Sequence record: OZ346222.1
Origin: a phage
Strand: one strand, 5' to 3'
DNA length: 64,000 nt
How positions within the stretch are numbered: position 1 is the first letter of the stretch; every line of letters begins with the position of its first letter. Position numbers and translations under genes: made by a program. The notes beneath the pieces were generated by a model. It saw only the letters and a list, made by a program, of their open reading frames with translations. It was not told where the DNA came from and ran no database searches. This document shows positions 5,309 through 61,555 of this stretch, piece after piece.

Positions 5309-5634
5309 CAGAGATCATCATTTCAACTGCAGGGTATGTGTTCCTGACAATCATTGCACTGACCATTCTGGTGGTGGTATATGGAATTGTTATTCTCCCT
5401 ATTCTTGAGACAATTAGTTTGTGTCGGTGTTGGAGAAAGGCTTACGGTCCACAGCCGTGGAAGGACTGGCCCCACCTGGTGCACATAGCGTTCTCTTATG
5501 CTTATGATCACGCCAGCAGTGCATGCATAACCGGGTATCACGCCCACAACTGGAGCTGGGAAGGGTTGAGGAAATGGAATGTTACAAAGACCATACCTCT
5601 GCGCATGTACAAACCTAAAAACAAAGACAGCTGA
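5305..5634 (+). CDS. membrane protein (109 aa)
   Basis: Track ORF; ATGA coupling; hydrophobic N-terminal helix. Confidence 0.55.
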   Translation: MTEIIISTAGYVFLTIIALTILVVVYGIVILPILETISLCRCWRKAYGPQPWKDWPHLVHIAFSYAYDHASSACITGYHAHNWSWEGLRKWNVTKTIPLRMYKPKNKDS

Positions 5635-5947
5635 TACTTGAAAATCCCTGGCATATCAAGTGTAAGGAGGATTTCTAAAATGGATTTCCTCCTTTTGATA
5701 TTTCACCGGGCCAGATATTTTAAAATTCTTAGAAAATCAGAAAATGGATCGAAAACTAAAATGGATTTTTCAAGACAGGCACGATAAGATGTGCTGCTCA
5801 TTCTATCGTTCGCACCGTACTTTAAGTCACTATTCCAGATTTTTCCGCACATACTCTCACCCTTCTACCAGAACTTTCCCAGCTTACCTCTGACCTTTTA
5901 TAACAATAAGTCCATTATTATCAGAAAGTTTCGGCACATCTCTTTCG

Positions 5948-6140
5948 GTACTCGATCTGTTTTTCATTTCAAAGACCTGATTTTCTGAAAATTTTTCTCG
6001 ATAAATTTCTTAGTACTCGATCTGTTTTTCATTTCAAAGACCTGATTTTCTGAAAATTTTTCTCGATAAATTTCTTAGTACTCGATCTGTTTTTCGTTTT
6101 CTGAATCGGATTTTCTGGAAATCGTTCCAGCTCTCGACCT
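5948..6140. repeat. tandem direct repeat, about 64-bp unit, two full copies plus a diverged third
   Basis: Unit GTACTCGATCTGTTTTTCATTTCAAAGACCTGATTTTCTGAAAATTTTTCTCGATAAATTTCTTA repeated exactly twice, third copy diverges. Confidence 0.8.
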
Positions 6141-6305
6141 GAAATTTTTGGGGACGAAATCGATTTTTCGTTTTCAGAAATGGATTTTTAAAATTTCTAT
6201 ATGGGAATATTTTATGGGATACTGTTTTATAGGAAATTGTTACGGAGGGTAATTAGCATGCTAATTAAATTTATTAAATGCGAGGAGTTCTCATTTAGAA
6301 TTTTG

Positions 6306-6495
6306 AATGATAATCATTCTCGTTTGCAGAATAACGGGCAGGCCCGGTGATTGTCTCCCGGCCCCTACTGCCCCGGCTTGTTATTATAGTATCACACAGG
6401 ACAAAGAAAGCAAGGATTTTTTGCATAAATTTTTAAATGATAATGATAACCGTTCTCATTTTATGCAGCGCCCATCCCCGGTGGTTGTCTCCCCC
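6306..6495. repeat. two about 60-bp direct repeats ending in GC-rich core CCGGTG(A/G)TTGTCTCCC
   Basis: AATGATAAT...TTGCAG...CCGGTGATTGTCTCCCGG at about 6306-6365 and a variant at about 6436-6495; third inverted copy of the core at about 16115-16139. Confidence 0.7.
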
Positions 6496-6716
6496 GTCAC
6501 CGGTGCCTGCCGTCCTTTCGATAGGTATATCGTGCCACCTGGCGGGGCCGCTGTCAACACTTTTCAAAAAATTTTTCTAACCTGATGCGCTAACCGCTGC
6601 AACCTGGCGGGGTCAGCCTGGCAGGACCTAACTGACCGGGTAGGAGAGAATGAAGGCTTGTAAACCTGGTGGGCCTATGCTACAGGATAGGTAACAATTG
6701 AAGAGGAGGTACAAAA

Positions 6717-6884
6717 ATGAAAGGTAATATGATCCCCCTAGAAAATGTAGCTATTAATGACGCTGAGGCTATCGCCCTGGTTGAAAAGGCTATGGCGGGA
6801 GCGTTGGAACATAAAGAAGAGTACGAAAAATGGTGGTTAACCTGGCGGGGGCGGCAGGTGGATTCTATCATAAAAATAATTTAA
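6717..6884 (+). CDS. hypothetical small protein (55 aa)
   Basis: Below track cutoff; GAAGAGGAGG RBS then ATG; open frame to TAA. Confidence 0.4.
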   Translation: MKGNMIPLENVAINDAEAIALVEKAMAGALEHKEEYEKWWLTWRGRQVDSIIKII

Positions 6885-6892
6885 AATAGTCG

Positions 6893-6922
6893 TTGACAAC
6901 AAGGTTAATCATGGTATTATTA
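6893..6922 (+). promoter_or_regulatory. sigma70-like promoter
   Basis: TTGACA, 17/18-nt spacer, TATTAT-like. Confidence 0.5.
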
Positions 6923-6970
6923 CCCTACAAGGTGAACAACACCGCACTAACCAGTAAAGAGGATAAATTT

Positions 6971-7168
6971 ATGAACGCATACGGGATCAAAGTACGTCGC
7001 AACACTCGCCAGGTGGTCACCAATCAAGTGATTTGCCGGGTGGATGTAACCATCAACAACGGGCAAGGCCTTTATAAATTTCGTCGCGGTCATAGCTATA
7101 CCCTGCAACAGCTTAATCGTTGCGCCCTGACAAAAGGTCAGATCAACCATTGGTTTAATAAAAAATAA
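6971..7168 (+). CDS. hypothetical protein (65 aa)
   Basis: Track ORF 6893..7168 trimmed to ATG after AAGAGGA RBS (upstream part is the promoter). Confidence 0.5.
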   Translation: MNAYGIKVRRNTRQVVTNQVICRVDVTINNGQGLYKFRRGHSYTLQQLNRCALTKGQINHWFNKK

Positions 7169-7171
7169 GTA

Positions 7172-7200
7172 TTGACATACAGTCCGACACCAAATACACT
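7172..7200 (+). promoter_or_regulatory. sigma70-like promoter
   Basis: TTGACA, 17-nt spacer, TACACT. Confidence 0.55.
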
Positions 7201-7232
7201 AAAAGCACAAAAGACACTAAGAGGATAAAATC

Positions 7233-7631
7233 ATGAAAACCACTACCTTTAATTTTGATAATGCAGACTTTTCTTTTTCTGATGTCAAGAACTGCCGCCG
7301 TGATCGTGGATTTTACAAGGCTTATAATCTGGTGGGCCTGGACGATGACAATAATTTGCACGAAGTAGCTGAGATCCGGTATTATGCCGCCGCCAGCGGT
7401 AACACTAACTACTGCGTTTTTTGGATACACGACAACAAGAACAATAAGTACGGTTATACTGGTGGCAAGGCGAGCGGTCACGGTTACGATAAAGCTAATG
7501 CAGCACTTGAGAGCGCATTAAATGCTATGGGGATCACTGCCAACGGCTGGATCTATGAAGAAGAGTTTTTGTCGGCACTTGCTGACCACCTGGGCTATAA
7601 AAAGCACATTGTAACATGCGCCCACGAATAA
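7233..7631 (+). CDS. hypothetical protein (132 aa)
   Basis: Track ORF; AAGAGGA RBS. Confidence 0.6.
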   Translation: MKTTTFNFDNADFSFSDVKNCRRDRGFYKAYNLVGLDDDNNLHEVAEIRYYAAASGNTNYCVFWIHDNKNNKYGYTGGKASGHGYDKANAALESALNAMGITANGWIYEEEFLSALADHLGYKKHIVTCAHE

Positions 7632-53952: not shown

Positions 53953-54666
53953 TTAAATATACTCTGCTACATCCTTGAAGCTCGAAGGCTTCATGATCTT
54001 ACCTTTACTGTCAAGGAATATGATAACTTTATTACCGTTGTAGAATTCTTCCTTAGCAACAAAACCTTCATATCGACCATCAAAGCGTCGCTCAAGATCT
54101 TTAATCTCCAACTCTATGAGTTGTTCAGCAGGCATATCTGCACTGGCACCGTGTGAATACCGTAGATGGTTGACCCGTGCAAACTTGCTGTCATTCGATT
54201 TGAGAACCTTACGCATCATCCCGCACACATCGCCGCGAAGCTGGAACAGCAAAGCTGTTGACAACTCCGCTAAACGGTAAGCTGACGCTCTTTGCTTGGA
54301 TGTGTTTTTCGCAGCGATCAGTGTGTCATAGAACTCACCGATCTTGAACTTAAGACCTCGTGGATTATCAAACAGGTTTGACCACTTTTCGTGATTGTCA
54401 TTAACAAGATAAGCTGCATAACTTGTGACAACGTGAAGATCGCAGGCCTCCTTTAGCAGGTGATCTCCACCATCACCTTTCTCCAGCTCTTCCAAAACTT
54501 CATTGAACTCTTCCTCAATGAAGCTAAGCTGTAATTCGAATGGTGTGTATGATTTTTTCACTTTAGCTGCCACACGGTTCCAGTTTTCCACCCAGTTGGC
54601 AGACCAAAGGTAGTTTTCAGGTTGGGATAGTTTTTCCAGGTTGTCAATTAATTTAGTATTCAGCAT
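53953..54666 (-). CDS. hypothetical protein (237 aa), possible MazG-like nucleotide pyrophosphohydrolase
   Basis: Track ORF; EEEFNEVLEELE...D acidic helix reminiscent of MazG; weak. Confidence 0.3.
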   Translation of the reverse strand: MLNTKLIDNLEKLSQPENYLWSANWVENWNRVAAKVKKSYTPFELQLSFIEEEFNEVLEELEKGDGGDHLLKEACDLHVVTSYAAYLVNDNHEKWSNLFDNPRGLKFKIGEFYDTLIAAKNTSKQRASAYRLAELSTALLFQLRGDVCGMMRKVLKSNDSKFARVNHLRYSHGASADMPAEQLIELEIKDLERRFDGRYEGFVAKEEFYNGNKVIIFLDSKGKIMKPSSFKDVAEYI

Positions 54667-54679
54667 TAAAGGTCTCCTT

Positions 54680-55441
54680 TTAAAGTTCCATAAAGTTTTC
54701 TACAGTCTCAATGAATGTTTTATCAGAGAAGGCATCAACCGCACCGTTAAACCAAACTGGGATGCCACGATCCTCATACTGGTAAATATCACTACGTGAA
54801 ATGCCATTCTCCTCTAGATGCTGTGAGTCGTATTTATTAACGATCAGTAGTTTGGTTCCCTTATTGCAGGCAGGGAATAGCTCCCAGTTAAAATTGATAA
54901 CTGTGTTGGAGCACCCTACAAGGATAACCATATCATTGCTCGTAAGAGAAGTCAACAGGTCATACATGTCTGTATACTTCGGAGCTACTTCTCCGAAGAA
55001 CACCACATTAGGCTTAACCCAGGTATACTTTCCTGCGTCTACCTCAGAGTATCCAATGTCCTTAATGACGTCACTTCCTTCATCGTCCTCATAGACTATT
55101 TCTGGCAAATACCCGTGGACATGTAAAATATCTTCATGTTTTACACCAGCACGCTCCAGCAAATCATCTACATTGGTGGTAAGGTTGATCACACGACCAG
55201 ACCAGCGGGAATACCACTCAGCGATCCGAAGATGTGCAAGGTTAGGCTCAACACTGCCTAAAGCTACACGACGTGCATTGTAAAAGTCATGCACCTTATA
55301 GTAGTTCTTGGCAAAGGTGTGGATGTTGCACACCTCATCGATGCTGAAATTCTCCCACATTGCAGTGCTACCAGATCGGAAAGTGGGAATACCAGATTCA
55401 GCGCTCAAACCAGCACCGGAGATAATAATCAGTCGTCGCAT
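54680..55441 (-). CDS. Sir2-family NAD-dependent deacylase-like protein
   Basis: Track ORF; GAGLSAESGIPTFR NAD-binding signature, HG and FFGE motifs. Confidence 0.8.
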   Translation of the reverse strand: MRRLIIISGAGLSAESGIPTFRSGSTAMWENFSIDEVCNIHTFAKNYYKVHDFYNARRVALGSVEPNLAHLRIAEWYSRWSGRVINLTTNVDDLLERAGVKHEDILHVHGYLPEIVYEDDEGSDVIKDIGYSEVDAGKYTWVKPNVVFFGEVAPKYTDMYDLLTSLTSNDMVILVGCSNTVINFNWELFPACNKGTKLLIVNKYDSQHLEENGISRSDIYQYEDRGIPVWFNGAVDAFSDKTFIETVENFMEL

Positions 55442-55449
55442 AAGTGTCC

Positions 55450-55800
55450 TCAGTAGATGTTTTGTTTAATCTCTATTCCAAACTTTTTAAACGAGTCAGC
55501 TGCAAGCATGAATTTACGAGCCGCTGATGGGTTAGAAGTATGCACGAAAATCTTCACGTTGTCAACTACAGGAGGCTTACCAAATACAAATTTTTCCTCC
55601 AACATAGATAGGCAATCGTACCCTTCGAATACCTCTCCAAGGTCGTTGTCCATATGCCACTCAGAAACGCGTCTGTAGAGCTTTCTATTATCGTTAATAA
55701 AATCTATAAACTCGGAGGAATTCTTTAGCCAAACAGCGTCTTGGAGCCCGTACTTTGACGGATCTCTCAAGTCATCTAGCCACACAATCAACTTCTTCAT
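55450..55800 (-). CDS. hypothetical protein (116 aa)
   Basis: Track ORF; ATGA coupling to rnlA. Confidence 0.5.
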   Translation of the reverse strand: MKKLIVWLDDLRDPSKYGLQDAVWLKNSSEFIDFINDNRKLYRRVSEWHMDNDLGEVFEGYDCLSMLEEKFVFGKPPVVDNVKIFVHTSNPSAARKFMLAADSFKKFGIEIKQNIY

Positions 55801-56732
55801 TGCATATAGTTCTCGTTGTGGAAATAGTAATCGAGTATCTCACGGCGTTCCTGCTCCAGGAGGCAGTTCCATACATCCTCTGTGTAGTTGTTACGAATGA
55901 AGTTTACCATGCCGTAAAACTCTTCGTCAACACGTTTAAAGATATCATCATCCCAAATCTTCCAAGCTTTACCCCTCATTACGGCCTTCCGTGCCAGATA
56001 GTATGGAGACTTAATCTTCAGCTGCAGATCATAAGGGTAGTAAGGCTTACGAATCATATACCCTTCACCTCTTGTTTCTGCAGCTAATTCTTTTGCATAA
56101 CTGAACGGAATTTCACGCACAGTGTGAGGACGTTTTGCACCAAGGTATTTGGCAATCCCATCTAAAGCTGCTTCTGGTAGCATTATTCCAGAATCATTAT
56201 ATCTGCAACCTATCAAATATGCGCCACGATCTTCCTGAACAATATGCGGATCTGAGGGGTGACAAATTTCAAACATGAATGTCATATTTTCATTGCCCAT
56301 AACCTTCTTGATAAGATCTAAATTACCACATTGCTCCTGGATGGTTTCCTTTGCAAGGTTACAATATGGAGAATCAAGAGACCCGGTTGTTGAGAACAAT
56401 AGTTCACCTTTATGAGATGACACCACACCAAGGAATCCGTTCTTTTTCTCTACCGCCGTCACAAGCTTATTGTCAGGCAGGTTGGTGGAGTTTTCTCCCA
56501 AGTTAAACACTTTTGTAAAGGGCCATGCCACAACATTTCCTTCATTACCGACAACAATGCCTCGGCACTCCAGTAATCGAGGAGACAAATGCCATAAGTT
56601 GTTGTAGAATACTTTTCTGGCATATTTATAGATCTTTAACCCAAGGTCTGGGTGATATCTGCTGGTTACAAGACCTTTGTCAACTAGGTCGTCTGCATTA
56701 AAATACTTCATCATACGTTCCTCATTTGTCAT
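55797..56732 (-). CDS. rnlA: RNA ligase 1 (T4 RnlA-like)
   Basis: Track ORF; LLECRGIVV, VFNLGEN and lysine motif VEKKNGFLGVVS align with T4 RnlA LLECRGIMF, FFNLNEN, LTKEDGSLVSTY. Confidence 0.75.
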   Translation of the reverse strand: MTNEERMMKYFNADDLVDKGLVTSRYHPDLGLKIYKYARKVFYNNLWHLSPRLLECRGIVVGNEGNVVAWPFTKVFNLGENSTNLPDNKLVTAVEKKNGFLGVVSSHKGELLFSTTGSLDSPYCNLAKETIQEQCGNLDLIKKVMGNENMTFMFEICHPSDPHIVQEDRGAYLIGCRYNDSGIMLPEAALDGIAKYLGAKRPHTVREIPFSYAKELAAETRGEGYMIRKPYYPYDLQLKIKSPYYLARKAVMRGKAWKIWDDDIFKRVDEEFYGMVNFIRNNYTEDVWNCLLEQERREILDYYFHNENYMQ

Positions 56733-56775
56733 TTTGTCAGTCTATCCTGCCACACAAATAACCTAGTGTCAACAC

Positions 56776-56804
56776 TTGAAATTAACAAAACAGTTAGGTA
56801 TACT
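56776..56804 (+). promoter_or_regulatory. sigma70-like promoter in divergent intergenic region
   Basis: TTGAAA, 17-nt spacer, TATACT. Confidence 0.5.
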
Positions 56805-56832
56805 ATCGTTGAAATTAAAACGGAGGATTACT

Positions 56833-57243
56833 ATGTCTAAAATGCTATATATCGTGCGTGGTCTACCAGGGTCTGGCAAATCAACACTGGCAAGTGCGCT
56901 ATCTTTAGAAGGTCTGTATCCACATTTTGAGAACGACATGTTCTGGTACGACGATGATGGAAATTACAACTGGGATGCAAGTAAAGTAACACTTGCAGCA
57001 AAATGGTGCAAAGATAACGTAGAAGATATGATGCGTATGGGATACGACCGTATCGTGGTAAGTAATACATTTACAAAAGAAAAATATGTGCAAGAATATA
57101 TTGACATGGCGATCAGTCATGGGTATAGTTATACCGTAATCGTGGTTGAAAACCGCCATGGTAGTAAAAGCATTCATGATGTTCCAGACAGGGTTGTGGA
57201 TCGTATGGAACGCCAGCTTAAAAACTGCATTAAACTTAAATGA
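56833..57243 (+). CDS. polynucleotide 5'-kinase domain protein (T4 Pnk kinase-like)
   Basis: Track ORF 56776..57243 trimmed to ATG after ACGGAGGA RBS; P-loop GLPGSGKST as in T4 Pnkp. Confidence 0.65.
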   Translation: MSKMLYIVRGLPGSGKSTLASALSLEGLYPHFENDMFWYDDDGNYNWDASKVTLAAKWCKDNVEDMMRMGYDRIVVSNTFTKEKYVQEYIDMAISHGYSYTVIVVENRHGSKSIHDVPDRVVDRMERQLKNCIKLK

Positions 57244-57250
57244 GGAATGT

Positions 57251-57805
57251 ATGAAATACTTTGTAACAAGCGACACACACTTTCTCCACCAGCGGGTCAT
57301 GGAGTTTGACTCATGTCAAAAACACAGATCTCAGTATGATCACAATCTTGACAGTATGAATGCGGGGATCATCACCAAGTGGAACTCTGTTGTGTCACCT
57401 GCAGACACTGTGTTTCACTTAGGAGATATTGCGTGCACTAATGATAAGAATATTAACAAATTGCTCCCAGATGTTCTAAATATGTTGAACGGACATATTA
57501 TTCTTGTTCGTGGTAACCATGACACAAGGACGACTGTCAGAATTATGAAAGAGTTCGGTCATGAGGTTGTAGATTATTACGAGCTTCGCCACAACAAGAA
57601 TTTGATCTGTATGAGCCATTACCAGTTTGCAAAGTGGAACAGAAAGCCTCACGGATCGGTCCAACTGTTCGGTCATGCTCACGGAACCACACAGCAGTTG
57701 TTTGGCAGGCAGTTTGATGTCGGTTGGGATGTGTGGGGGAGACTCTTACCATTAGAAGAGGCATACCGTATTGCAATGAGTCTTGCTATTGACAGCGTGG
57801 AGTAA
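57251..57805 (+). CDS. calcineurin-like metallophosphoesterase
   Basis: Track ORF 57146..57805 trimmed to ATG after GAGGAA RBS; motifs DTHF, GDIA, GNHD, GHAHG. Confidence 0.7.
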   Translation: MKYFVTSDTHFLHQRVMEFDSCQKHRSQYDHNLDSMNAGIITKWNSVVSPADTVFHLGDIACTNDKNINKLLPDVLNMLNGHIILVRGNHDTRTTVRIMKEFGHEVVDYYELRHNKNLICMSHYQFAKWNRKPHGSVQLFGHAHGTTQQLFGRQFDVGWDVWGRLLPLEEAYRIAMSLAIDSVE

Positions 57806-57852: not shown

Positions 57853-58203
57853 ATGAAAGATGGGGATAAGCTGCTATATCTTAAAGTCCCCCTTGAAATA
57901 CTGTCTATGTCAAAAGTTTTGAATGACACAACTGGTGAGGTTGTTGTTCTTGACTTATATGACAAGATCGTATACTGCTACCTGCACAACTGGTATAAGC
58001 TTGGAGGAAATTCACGCTTCACGCCCAGCACAAGGAAAATTGCAGCAGATATTGGGATAAAGAAAACAAAAGCAGCAGCGTGCGTTAAAACTTTAGAATG
58101 TGCAGGAGTGGTTGAAATATCCACGCAAGGGAGAGGTAAAAGATGCACATTTTCCAAAGTTTTGCCACCAGAAGAAGTTATTCGAATGTCAACAACTGGT
58201 TAG
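57853..58203 (+). CDS. hypothetical protein (116 aa)
   Basis: Track ORF; AAGGAGAA RBS. Confidence 0.55.
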   Translation: MKDGDKLLYLKVPLEILSMSKVLNDTTGEVVVLDLYDKIVYCYLHNWYKLGGNSRFTPSTRKIAADIGIKKTKAAACVKTLECAGVVEISTQGRGKRCTFSKVLPPEEVIRMSTTG

Positions 58204-60742: not shown

Positions 60743-60817
60743 GCCCTGTTAGCTTAGTGGATAAAGCAGCGGCCTTCTAAGCCGTTGACACTGGTTCGAG
60801 TCCAGTACGGGGTGCCA
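60743..60817 (+). tRNA. tRNA-Arg (anticodon TCT)
   Basis: Manual fold: 7-bp acceptor with G-U pairs, anticodon loop CTTCTAA, T-loop TTCGAGT, 3' CCA encoded. Confidence 0.7.
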
Positions 60818-60821
60818 AATT

Positions 60822-60908
60822 GGGGAGTTATCCCGTAGAGGTAGCGGTGTAGACTGTAAATCTATTGTCATTGCGACTCGGGTGGTTCGACTCCACCACT
60901 CCCCACCA
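60822..60908 (+). tRNA. tRNA-Tyr (anticodon GTA), long variable arm
   Basis: Acceptor GGGGAGT/ACTCCCC, anticodon loop CTGTAAA, long extra arm, T-loop TTCGACT, CCA encoded. Confidence 0.75.
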
Positions 60909-61022
60909 AATTTATATTTTTAGATGCATAAATAATACAGATAATGGCATTGATATTTATCGTCGTTTATACTAGTCACTAACTGCTCGAAAATCAGTGT
61001 CATTATCAGTATAATTTATAAA

Positions 61023-61113
61023 GGAGGGTAGGGAGCAATGGTGCTCAAGCGGTATTGAAAACCGTCCCGTTGAGGATGACTCGATGATGGTTCGATTCCA
61101 TTACTCTCCGCCA
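61023..61113 (+). tRNA. tRNA-Ser (anticodon TGA), long variable arm
   Basis: Acceptor GGAGGGT/ACTCTCC, anticodon loop ATTGAAA, about 20-nt extra arm, T-loop TTCGATT, CCA encoded. Confidence 0.7.
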
Positions 61114-61211
61114 CATTGTTGACCTTGTAATTAAGCGAAAGCCGGAAGCAGAACCGGATTATCAAATGTTACAGTCGTCATCGCCGACTAGCAACATGGT
61201 CAACATACTGA

Positions 61212-61308
61212 GCTAGGTAAGCCCTTTGGCAAGGGCGAGGATTTTTAATCCTGAAAATAGACGAGGTAGTCGTTGAATACATAGGTGGTTCGATTCCATC
61301 ACCTAGCA
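61212..61308 (+). tRNA. atypical tRNA-like gene (possible anticodon TTT) with about 30-nt extra arm
   Basis: Acceptor GCTAGGT/ACCTAGC, D-arm GCCC/GGGC, 4-bp anticodon stem with loop TTTTTAA, T-arm GGTGG TTCGATT CCATC; no CCA; extra region too long for a canonical tRNA. Confidence 0.35.
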
Positions 61309-61315
61309 CCTTTTT

Positions 61316-61391
61316 GCTGATGTAGCACAATCGGTAGTGCAATTGATTTGTAATCAATAGGTTGTAGGTTCAAGTCCTGCCATCAGCACCA
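61316..61391 (+). tRNA. tRNA-Thr (anticodon TGT)
   Basis: Acceptor GCTGATG/CATCAGC, anticodon stem ATTGA/TCAAT with loop TTTGTAA, T-loop TTCAAGT, CCA encoded. Confidence 0.75.
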
Positions 61392-61392
61392 A

Positions 61393-61467
61393 GGCCCTGT
61401 AGCTGGAAGGTTCAAGCAAGCGACTCATAATCGCCAGACGGTGGTTCAATTCCACCCAGGGCCACCA
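61393..61467 (+). tRNA. tRNA-Met or Ile2 (anticodon CAT), elongator type
   Basis: Acceptor GGCCCTG/CAGGGCC (G1-C72 paired), anticodon loop CTCATAA, T-loop TTCAATT, CCA encoded. Confidence 0.7.
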
Positions 61468-61478
61468 AATAGTAAATA

Positions 61479-61555
61479 CTCCGCGTAGCTCAGCTTGGTA
61501 GAGCGCCTGATTTGGGATCAGGAGGTCGAGTGTTCGAATCACTCCGTGGAGACCA
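61479..61555 (+). tRNA. tRNA-Pro (anticodon TGG)
   Basis: Acceptor CTCCGCG/CGTGGAG, anticodon stem CCTGA/TCAGG with loop TTTGGGA, T-loop TTCGAAT, CCA encoded. Confidence 0.75.

Follow-up and report, generated by a model that had tools for sequence, protein, structure and literature searches.

A conserved RNA ligase, kinase and metallophosphoesterase module, predicted to heal and seal RNA, in an rV5-type phage of Escherichia coli

Three genes at the locus

The window analysed here, a 64,000-nucleotide stretch of phage DNA from sequence record OZ346222.1, belongs to a Vequintavirus (rV5-type E. coli phage). It carries neighbouring genes for a predicted short Rnl1-clade ATP-dependent RNA ligase (55797..56732, minus strand), a predicted stand-alone Pnk-type polynucleotide 5'-OH kinase of 136 aa (56833..57243, plus strand), and an aq_1665-type binuclear metallophosphoesterase (MPE) of 184 aa (57251..57805, plus strand), which is the predicted 3'-end healing enzyme. 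An earlier note on this DNA, made from the letters alone, had read the three genes as a split RNA-repair cassette beside a transfer RNA (tRNA) cluster. The three open reading frames (ORFs) lie at the positions given there, although the starts of the kinase and MPE genes had to be corrected from 56776 to 56833 and from 57146 to 57251, respectively. The strands confirmed that the ligase gene is divergent from the kinase–MPE pair, with a gap of about 100–118 bp between them, and hidden Markov model (HMM) searches (RNA_lig_T4_1, AAA_33, and Metallophos_2/Metallophos) bore out the three enzyme assignments. Over 2.9 kb at the cassette, the sequence shares 99.9% identity with Escherichia phages slur16, slur12, and rV5_ev147, and about 119 records, nearly all of them Vequintavirus, share at least 90% identity with it. 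The annotations in the collinear BASEL phage Bas52 read 'RNA ligase', 'polynucleotide kinase', and 'putative phosphoresterase'.

The ligase ORF, 311 aa in length, matches Pfam RNA_lig_T4_1 (PF09511) with an E-value of 4.3e-15 and phrog_562 with an E-value of 1e-66. Translation probably starts at Met7 or Met8 (56714/56711), giving a protein of about 305 aa, because these codons have the better ribosome-binding site (GAGGAA, 56723–56718) and the Bas52 homologue is annotated in GenBank with 305 aa. A single-sequence search of the PDB returned nothing useful and a family profile was required, which matched T4 Rnl1 with an E-value of 5.5e-26. The nucleotidyltransferase motifs I (KxxG), III, IV (EG), and V (KxK) are all present, and K96, G99, E155, E223, G224, K239, and K241 are invariant in the family (8- and 48-sequence alignments), corresponding to K99, G102, E159, E227, G228, K240, and K242 of the T4 enzyme. 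The Rnl1-specific residues are also invariant: R57 and K74 in the 8-sequence alignment and F76 in the 5- and 48-sequence alignments. They align with R54, K75, and F77 of T4 Rnl1, which lie upstream of motif I and were reportedly found to be essential by Wang, Ho and Shuman in 2003. The overall fold of the adenylyltransferase domain agrees with the Rnl1 family. The predicted activity is ATP-dependent sealing of 3'-OH and 5'-phosphate RNA ends. The search for homologues yielded 1680 sequences at E-values of 1e-5 or lower, and the best hits listed are nearly all about 300 aa long.

The kinase gene starts at the ATG at 56833, with GGAGGA 5 nt before it. Its product matches AAA_33 (E-value 2.4e-10), phrog_2071 (1.6e-57), and phrog_505, 'polynucleotide kinase' (7e-10). 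For this protein, too, the single-sequence search of the PDB gave no matches and a family profile was required. The best solved matches of the 16-member profile were the Mucorales RNA 5'-OH kinases 9DRZ and 9D8A (E-values of 2e-7 to 5e-7; 4.7e-7 for 9D8A), followed by T4 Pnk (1LTQ; 3.4e-6, over residues 2–144, the whole kinase domain), Capnocytophaga Pnkp1 (4XRP; 6e-6), and the Clostridium thermocellum Pnkp kinase (4GP7; 3e-5). The P-loop GLPGSGKST fits the GxxGxGK(S/T) pattern, and its G10, G13, and K16 are invariant in the 16 sequences, as is D35, which aligns with the acceptor-activating Asp35 of T4 Pnk. In the same alignment, K16 and R107 correspond to T4 K15 and R126. The protein stands alone at 136 aa with no counterpart of the HAD phosphatase found in T4 Pnkp, in agreement with the earlier note. 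In its passages on the Mucorales kinases, PMC11571804 identifies 9D8A as a tRNA-splicing kinase and describes Asp36 as essential in MciKIN, the Asp being at position 35 in the phage protein. As a side observation, the N-terminus (positions 2–109) of the 737-position 'RNA ligase' profile phrog_8238 matches the kinase of the window and positions 440–686 match its ligase, while the middle part shows no match to the MPE. The profile implies a large kinase–X–ligase fusion, predicted from these matches, in some phages.

The ATG of the MPE gene is only 7 bases past the kinase stop codon, with GAGGAA between the two, and the genes are translationally coupled. The matches to Metallophos_2 (1.7e-6) and Metallophos (4.1e-6) both exceed the curated Pfam cut-offs. 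The binuclear metal motifs DxH, GD, GNH(D/E), H, GH, and GHxH are all present, and their residues D8, H10, G58, D59, G88, N89, H90, H123, G141, H142, and H144 show no variation in alignments of 18 and 47 sequences. The invariance of the metal motifs in two independent alignments leads us to expect an active enzyme. The sole strong solved relative found with the family profile is aq_1665 of Aquifex aeolicus (1XM7, E-value 1e-21), a structural-genomics protein, so that this match places the family but gives no substrate. LpxH, lambda protein phosphatase, and small phosphodiesterases are among the structures that come next. Motif II does not contain the DR of the GDxxDR motif seen in PPP-type protein phosphatases and in the Pnkp phosphatase, which places the MPE outside the lambda phosphatase/Pnkp clade. 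The likeness to bacterial Pnkp/Hen1 systems proposed earlier holds at the superfamily level but not at the clade level, as the MPE belongs to the uncharacterised aq_1665 clade. The MPE is predicted to act as a 2',3'-cyclic phosphodiesterase/3'-phosphatase on RNA ends.

Linkage in phages and bacterial chromosomes

The association of the three genes was examined in 88 phage ligase loci, comprising 8 from GenBank phages and 80 from IMG/VR, by using iterated HMMs of the window proteins. The IMG/VR loci were found with a 5-sequence ligase alignment as the seed, and the ligases were grouped at 70% identity into 41 lineages. The kinase gene lies within 2 kb of the ligase gene in 35 of the 41 lineages and the MPE gene in 31, and both occur in the ligase flanks of about 8 kb in 32. 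An unbiased clustering of all ORFs within 4 kb of the ligase likewise brought up the kinase (36 lineages) and the MPE (34 lineages), and the next families were NAMPT (10), DNA ligase (9), and phosphoribosyl pyrophosphate (PRPP) synthetase (7). As a background, among 50,697 phage records the kinase was found in 622 (1.2%), the MPE in 1355 (2.7%), and the ligase in 781, and the genus counts of the kinase and the ligase are nearly identical. Except in the rV5 genus, every lineage has the kinase and MPE genes on the same strand as the ligase gene. There are at least four gene orders, namely kinase–ligase–MPE (24 loci), MPE–ligase–kinase (20), ligase–kinase–MPE (8), and ligase–MPE–kinase (5), and the linkage persists at ligase divergence down to about 30% identity. 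No kinase–ligase–MPE fusions were found in the phage loci.

All three genes are also adjacent in 62 of 69 loci in bacterial genomes. In every locus inspected from Campylobacter, Moraxella, Neisseria, and Cardiobacterium, the kinase and ligase HMMs match a single ORF of about 500 aa and the MPE is encoded by the next gene; Pfam also records AAA_33 and RNA_lig_T4_1 together in single bacterial proteins. Examples of such fusion–MPE operons are found in Moraxella osloensis (CP083409.1, locus 5353–7623), Campylobacter concisus (locus 5386–7618), and Neisseria flavescens. The fusion loci have an ordinary chromosomal setting with no prophage context, and the Moraxella locus adjoins genes for TerD/vWA, UvrD, and the RNA-repair nucleotidyltransferase RlaP.

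The maintenance of the linkage through reshuffled gene orders and fusion is strong evidence of a shared pathway, and the ligase–kinase–MPE trio is a functional module. The view of the three genes as one unit was borne out in this way by the co-occurrence in 32 of the 41 lineages and by the bacterial kinase–ligase fusions. The split layout noticed earlier turned out to be the rule for the ligase family and is no special trait of this phage.

The same data bear on the alternative that the three genes are adjacent but serve separate processes, with only the ligase acting on RNA. The MPE, for example, might dephosphorylate proteins or hydrolyse cyclic-nucleotide defence signals, and the kinase might act on nucleotides. 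The MPE family is in fact spread twice as widely as the ligase, also to phages without the ligase, its closest solved structure has no known function, and its next neighbours are those named above. In addition, the surrounding region is a general nucleotide-metabolism block with genes for ribonucleotide reductases, a Thy1-domain protein, and a DNA ligase. However, the linkage survives the four gene orders and the ligase divergence, and it recurs as kinase–ligase fusions with an adjacent MPE in non-phage chromosomes. The missing GDxxDR motif speaks against a PPP-type protein phosphatase, and the alignment of the kinase with polynucleotide kinases spans its full length and includes Asp35, the acceptor-activating residue. 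We therefore regard separate processes as quite improbable. Even less probable is a module that heals DNA nicks with 3'-phosphate and 5'-OH ends made by host nucleases, alongside the nearby ATP-dependent DNA ligase, as the sealing enzyme has an RNA-ligase fold.

A possible route for RNA healing and sealing

Systems that cut RNA or tRNA, such as PrrC, RloC, PARIS, Cas13, and HEPN toxins, have come to be recognized as a common form of anti-phage defence. We consider it probable that the ligase, kinase, and MPE form a T4-like three-enzyme RNA heal-and-seal module with substituted parts, to which rV5-like phages have added a lineage-specific side route dependent on nicotinamide adenine dinucleotide (NAD). 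A metal-independent host RNase (a PrrC/RloC anticodon nuclease, a HEPN protein, a toxin, or a Cas13-type enzyme) would leave 2',3'-cyclic-phosphate and 5'-OH ends. The MPE would open the cyclic phosphate and then remove the cyclic or 3'-phosphate to give a 3'-OH end, the Pnk-type kinase would phosphorylate the 5'-OH end, and the Rnl1-clade ligase would join the 3'-OH to the 5'-phosphate via a Lys96–AMP intermediate. Such a module could serve as counter-defence.

To our knowledge, the Pnkp/Rnl1 pathway of T4 is the only proven phage repair pathway. In comparison with T4 Pnkp (PseT) and Rnl1 (gp63), which repair tRNA cut by the anticodon nuclease PrrC, the kinase of the window has no HAD phosphatase, and the predicted 3'-healing enzyme is an unrelated metalloenzyme. 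At about 305 aa, the ligase is shorter than T4 Rnl1 (374 aa), apparently with a shortened C-terminal module, and has Thr in place of Lys119. The combination of a binuclear metallophosphoesterase, a P-loop polynucleotide kinase, and an ATP-dependent ligase resembles bacterial Pnkp/Hen1 (C. thermocellum) and Pnkp1/Rnl/Hen1 (Capnocytophaga). The partner protein Hen1 of those systems is a 2'-O-methyltransferase; the annotation of the collinear Bas52 lists no methyltransferase within 6 kb, and none is among the conserved neighbour families. The distribution of the activities over separate small proteins is also seen in the split tRNA-splicing apparatus of Mucorales, as described in the relevant parts of PMC11571804 and PMC10946426, which consists of a stand-alone RNA ligase, an RNA 5'-OH kinase, and Tpt1. 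Among solved structures, the phage kinase family is matched best by two stand-alone kinases of Mucorales, RazKIN and the protein of 9DRZ. The Mucorales system is, however, eukaryotic, serves tRNA splicing, and employs a 2H-type cyclic phosphodiesterase and a 2'-phosphate-dependent ligase, whereas the phage locus has the MPE for the 3' end, plus cREC and Sir2.

Several observations weigh against a T4-like module. In the ligase, the position of the essential motif Ia residue Lys119 of T4 Rnl1 is occupied by Thr, in an invariant STTGS sequence, throughout the family. The profile alignment to T4 Rnl1 stops at T4 residue 268, leaving the tRNA-specificity C-domain (T4 residues 255–374, about 120 aa, helical) unmatched in sequence; in the predicted model of the phage ligase there are only about 65 C-terminal residues, which form short helices. 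Moreover, the ligase scores 38 bits against the 242-bit cut-off of the NCBIfam equivalog TIGR02308 (T4 RnlA) and covers model positions 32–250 only. In the kinase, there is no equivalent of T4 Arg38, the position being taken by Trp or another residue, and R107, the equivalent of T4 Arg126, is not invariant, as some family members have Q, N, T, L, or Y. In T4 Pnk, Wang, Lima and Shuman are said to have found in 2002 that the acceptor-binding Arg38 and the lid residue Arg126 are essential. For the MPE, the literature searched contained no reported activity for any member of the aq_1665 clade, and the family occurs in many phages that do not have this ligase (119 Staphylococcus, 76 Enterococcus, 56 Listeria, and 43 Bacillus records). 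Only 12 of the 41 lineages have tRNA genes at a distance of 8 kb or less from the ligase, and proximity to tRNA genes was consequently rejected as a conserved feature of the module; the placement of the cassette beside a tRNA cluster holds for the window itself. Finally, in one host comparison with phage Bas54, no insertion depletion was seen in these genes (ligase log2 fold change +0.43, q 0.89).

The Bas54 data come from the HIDEN-SEQ preprint, in which transposon insertions were mapped in this Vequintavirus with the same gene order. On E. coli K-12, the ligase (insertions at 56 of 60 TA sites), kinase (33 of 36), and phosphoesterase (26 of 27) genes are non-essential, as are the MazG-like gene and the sirtuin gene, while the cREC gene is classed as 'intermediate'. 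Insertions at 56 of 60 TA sites led us to reject an essential tail-fibre attachment role of the T4 gp63 type, which many GenBank names imply; unlike T4 gp63, the ligase homologue in Bas54 is not needed for virion assembly. The non-essentiality fits a conditional counter-defence role. The module is dispensable on laboratory E. coli and presumably needed only on RNA-cutting hosts.

RNA healing and sealing remains the best reading of the trio and matches a published prediction. Transfer RNA, which the earlier note had taken as the substrate, is a plausible candidate only, because the ligase has no sequence match to the tRNA-specificity domain of T4 Rnl1. The earlier interpretation is largely right and partly supported.

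The published prediction is that of Iyer, Burroughs, Anantharaman, and Aravind in 2022 (PMC9503650). Section 3.7.3 of that paper describes a sirtuin-linked RNA-repair neighbourhood, 'type 2', with Escherichia phage V5 and Proteus phage Mydo as prototypes, thus the same locus and phage group, and lists for it a T4-like tRNA ligase, cREC, a nucleotide kinase, a sirtuin, a MazG-type pyrophosphatase, and a calcineurin-like phosphoesterase. The window contains the full set of six, at 53953–57805. The cassette was accordingly already known as a prediction from that section, and the genes are correctly annotated in GenBank. The cassette described in the earlier note does contain the ligase, kinase, and MPE, but it is larger than stated there, since the ligase operon runs on into the cREC, Sir2, and MazG-like genes. 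The cREC (cyclic-phosphate-processing receiver-like) gene (55450..55800, minus strand) matches PF20274 (cREC_REC, E-value 4.5e-15), and its ATG overlaps the TGA of the ligase gene as ATGA, a sign of translational coupling. This family, defined in PMC7824862, is predicted there and in PMC9503650 to be a metal-independent cyclic phosphodiesterase. It is followed by a gene for a Sir2-family protein (54680..55441, minus strand; PF02146, E-value 3e-27; phrog_2162, 9e-110), a lineage-specific accessory. Section 3.7.3 proposes for Sir2 a KptA/Tpt1-like removal of RNA 2'-phosphate and assigns the resolution of the cyclic phosphate to cREC or the phosphoesterase. The protein keeps the NAD-binding GAGxS...GIPxFR motif and the catalytic His of the HG motif. 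No CxxC pairs were seen by eye, and the zinc-ribbon module of classical sirtuins is apparently missing, which fits the 'distinct clade of sirtuin' in that section. The third accessory, likewise lineage-specific, is a candidate MazG-like nucleotide pyrophosphohydrolase (53953..54666, minus strand), which matches phrog_671, 'nucleotide pyrophosphohydrolase' (5e-22), and has no match in the Pfam or NCBIfam scans; a MazG-type enzyme is among those listed for the V5 neighbourhood (PMC9503650). In rV5-like phages, the cREC, Sir2, and MazG-like enzymes probably provide a further route, dependent on NAD, by which 2'-phosphate or cyclic-phosphate ends are handled, as Iyer et al. proposed.

The accessory genes raise the chief alternative for this phage, namely that the main route in rV5-like phages is Trl1/Tpt1-like, as in fungi and plants, rather than T4-like. 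According to this scheme, cREC would open the cyclic phosphate to give a 3'-OH/2'-phosphate end, the kinase would phosphorylate the 5' end, and the ligase would seal the 2'-phosphate end, after which Sir2 and NAD would strip the 2'-phosphate from the junction; the MPE would be an accessory or would serve in the clean-up of ADP-ribose cyclic phosphate. The presence of cREC and Sir2 on the ligase operon accords with the scheme, but the activities of cREC and of the Sir2 clade are predictions, the bacterial fusion operons carry the MPE and neither Sir2 nor cREC, and cREC, Sir2, and MazG stand beside the ligase in only 3 of the 41 lineages, compared with 34–35 for the MPE. We consider this route unlikely as the main one. 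The same counts reverse the emphasis of section 3.7.3 of PMC9503650, which centres the neighbourhood on the sirtuin and calls the phosphoesterase 'occasional'. The refinement added here is that the conserved core accompanying the ligase is the kinase and the MPE, not the sirtuin.

More tentatively, and with somewhat less than even confidence, we propose that the T4-like trio represents a third, biochemically uncharacterised class of RNA heal-and-seal systems with an aq_1665-type MPE as the healing enzyme and with two parallel 3'-healing routes in rV5-like phages. As part of this proposal, the class would be widespread in virulent phages of Proteobacteria and fixed as an operon of the kinase–ligase fusion and MPE in Campylobacter, Moraxella, and Neisseria. 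If so, the metal-dependent (MPE) and NAD-dependent (cREC and Sir2) routes would let rV5-like phages mend the products of several host RNases, and the orphan aq_1665 metallophosphoesterase family would gain its first function. Hundreds of sequenced phages carry the module, among them members of the Vequintavirus and Pakpunavirus groups, which are of therapeutic relevance. Should RNA repair be its true function, the module would often act as a counter-defence and would help to determine the host range.

Transfer RNA genes and the surrounding region

The seven tRNA genes noticed earlier about 3 kb away were confirmed by ARAGORN and Rfam (60743..61555, plus strand); the cluster begins 2938 bp past the MPE stop codon. 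It comprises Arg-UCU, Tyr-GUA, Ser-UGA, an aberrant Lys-UUU with a long extra arm, Thr-UGU, a CAU tRNA (Met according to ARAGORN, Ile in Bas52), and Pro-UGG. It is possible that these phage tRNAs are beneficiaries of the module. The aberrant tRNA (61212–61308, plus strand) matches the tRNA model end to end with 35.5 bits and has, at the variable-arm position, a 26-nt insertion forming a separate hairpin. The anticodon, read from the loop UUUUUAA, is UUU (Lys); ARAGORN left the tRNA unnamed, and the Bas52 homologue is tRNA-Lys. The tRNA-Lys(UUU) is the target of PrrC and of AriB in PARIS. The aberrant phage tRNA-Lys next to the repair module may be a nuclease-resistant substitute. The PARIS/AriB paper contains nothing bearing on repair.

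The divergent intergenic region (56733..56832) contains a promoter-like site and the kinase ribosome-binding site, both as consensus matches only. The promoter-like TTGAAA-17-TATACT at 56776–56804 (plus strand), ahead of the kinase gene, agrees with the sigma-70 consensus at 10 of 12 positions, and the sigma-70 consensus scan of the gap brought up no promoter-like site for the ligase operon.

Ten large ORFs of the window were scanned, among which a Clp-type protease, PhoH, the ribonucleotide reductases, and the Thy1-domain protein were recognized and four had no Pfam match; no NAD salvage genes turned up among the ten. In Justusliebigvirus, Mydovirus, and Pakpunavirus, the module stands beside the NAD salvage genes for NAMPT and PRPP synthetase, which flank it in Mydo, PaulScherrer, and Pseudomonas phage K8.

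Directly downstream of the MPE gene lies a gene for a small helix-turn-helix (HTH) protein (57853–58203, plus strand), which matches HTH_36 above the Pfam cut-off and DUF6945 slightly below it and is annotated as a 'transcriptional regulator' or 'replication initiation protein'. In Bas54, where the homologous gene is bas54_0212, the mean read count of insertions is low and the gene falls in the 'intermediate' class, unlike the neighbouring repair genes, which are dispensable.

About 18–23 GenBank records named 'Campylobacter phage' (e.g. MG065676.1, MG065674.1, and MG065644.1) are 96–98% identical here to rV5-like E. coli phages. These records are mostly unannotated and carry Campylobacter jejuni as the host entry, suggesting that the host label is wrong or that they reflect contamination.

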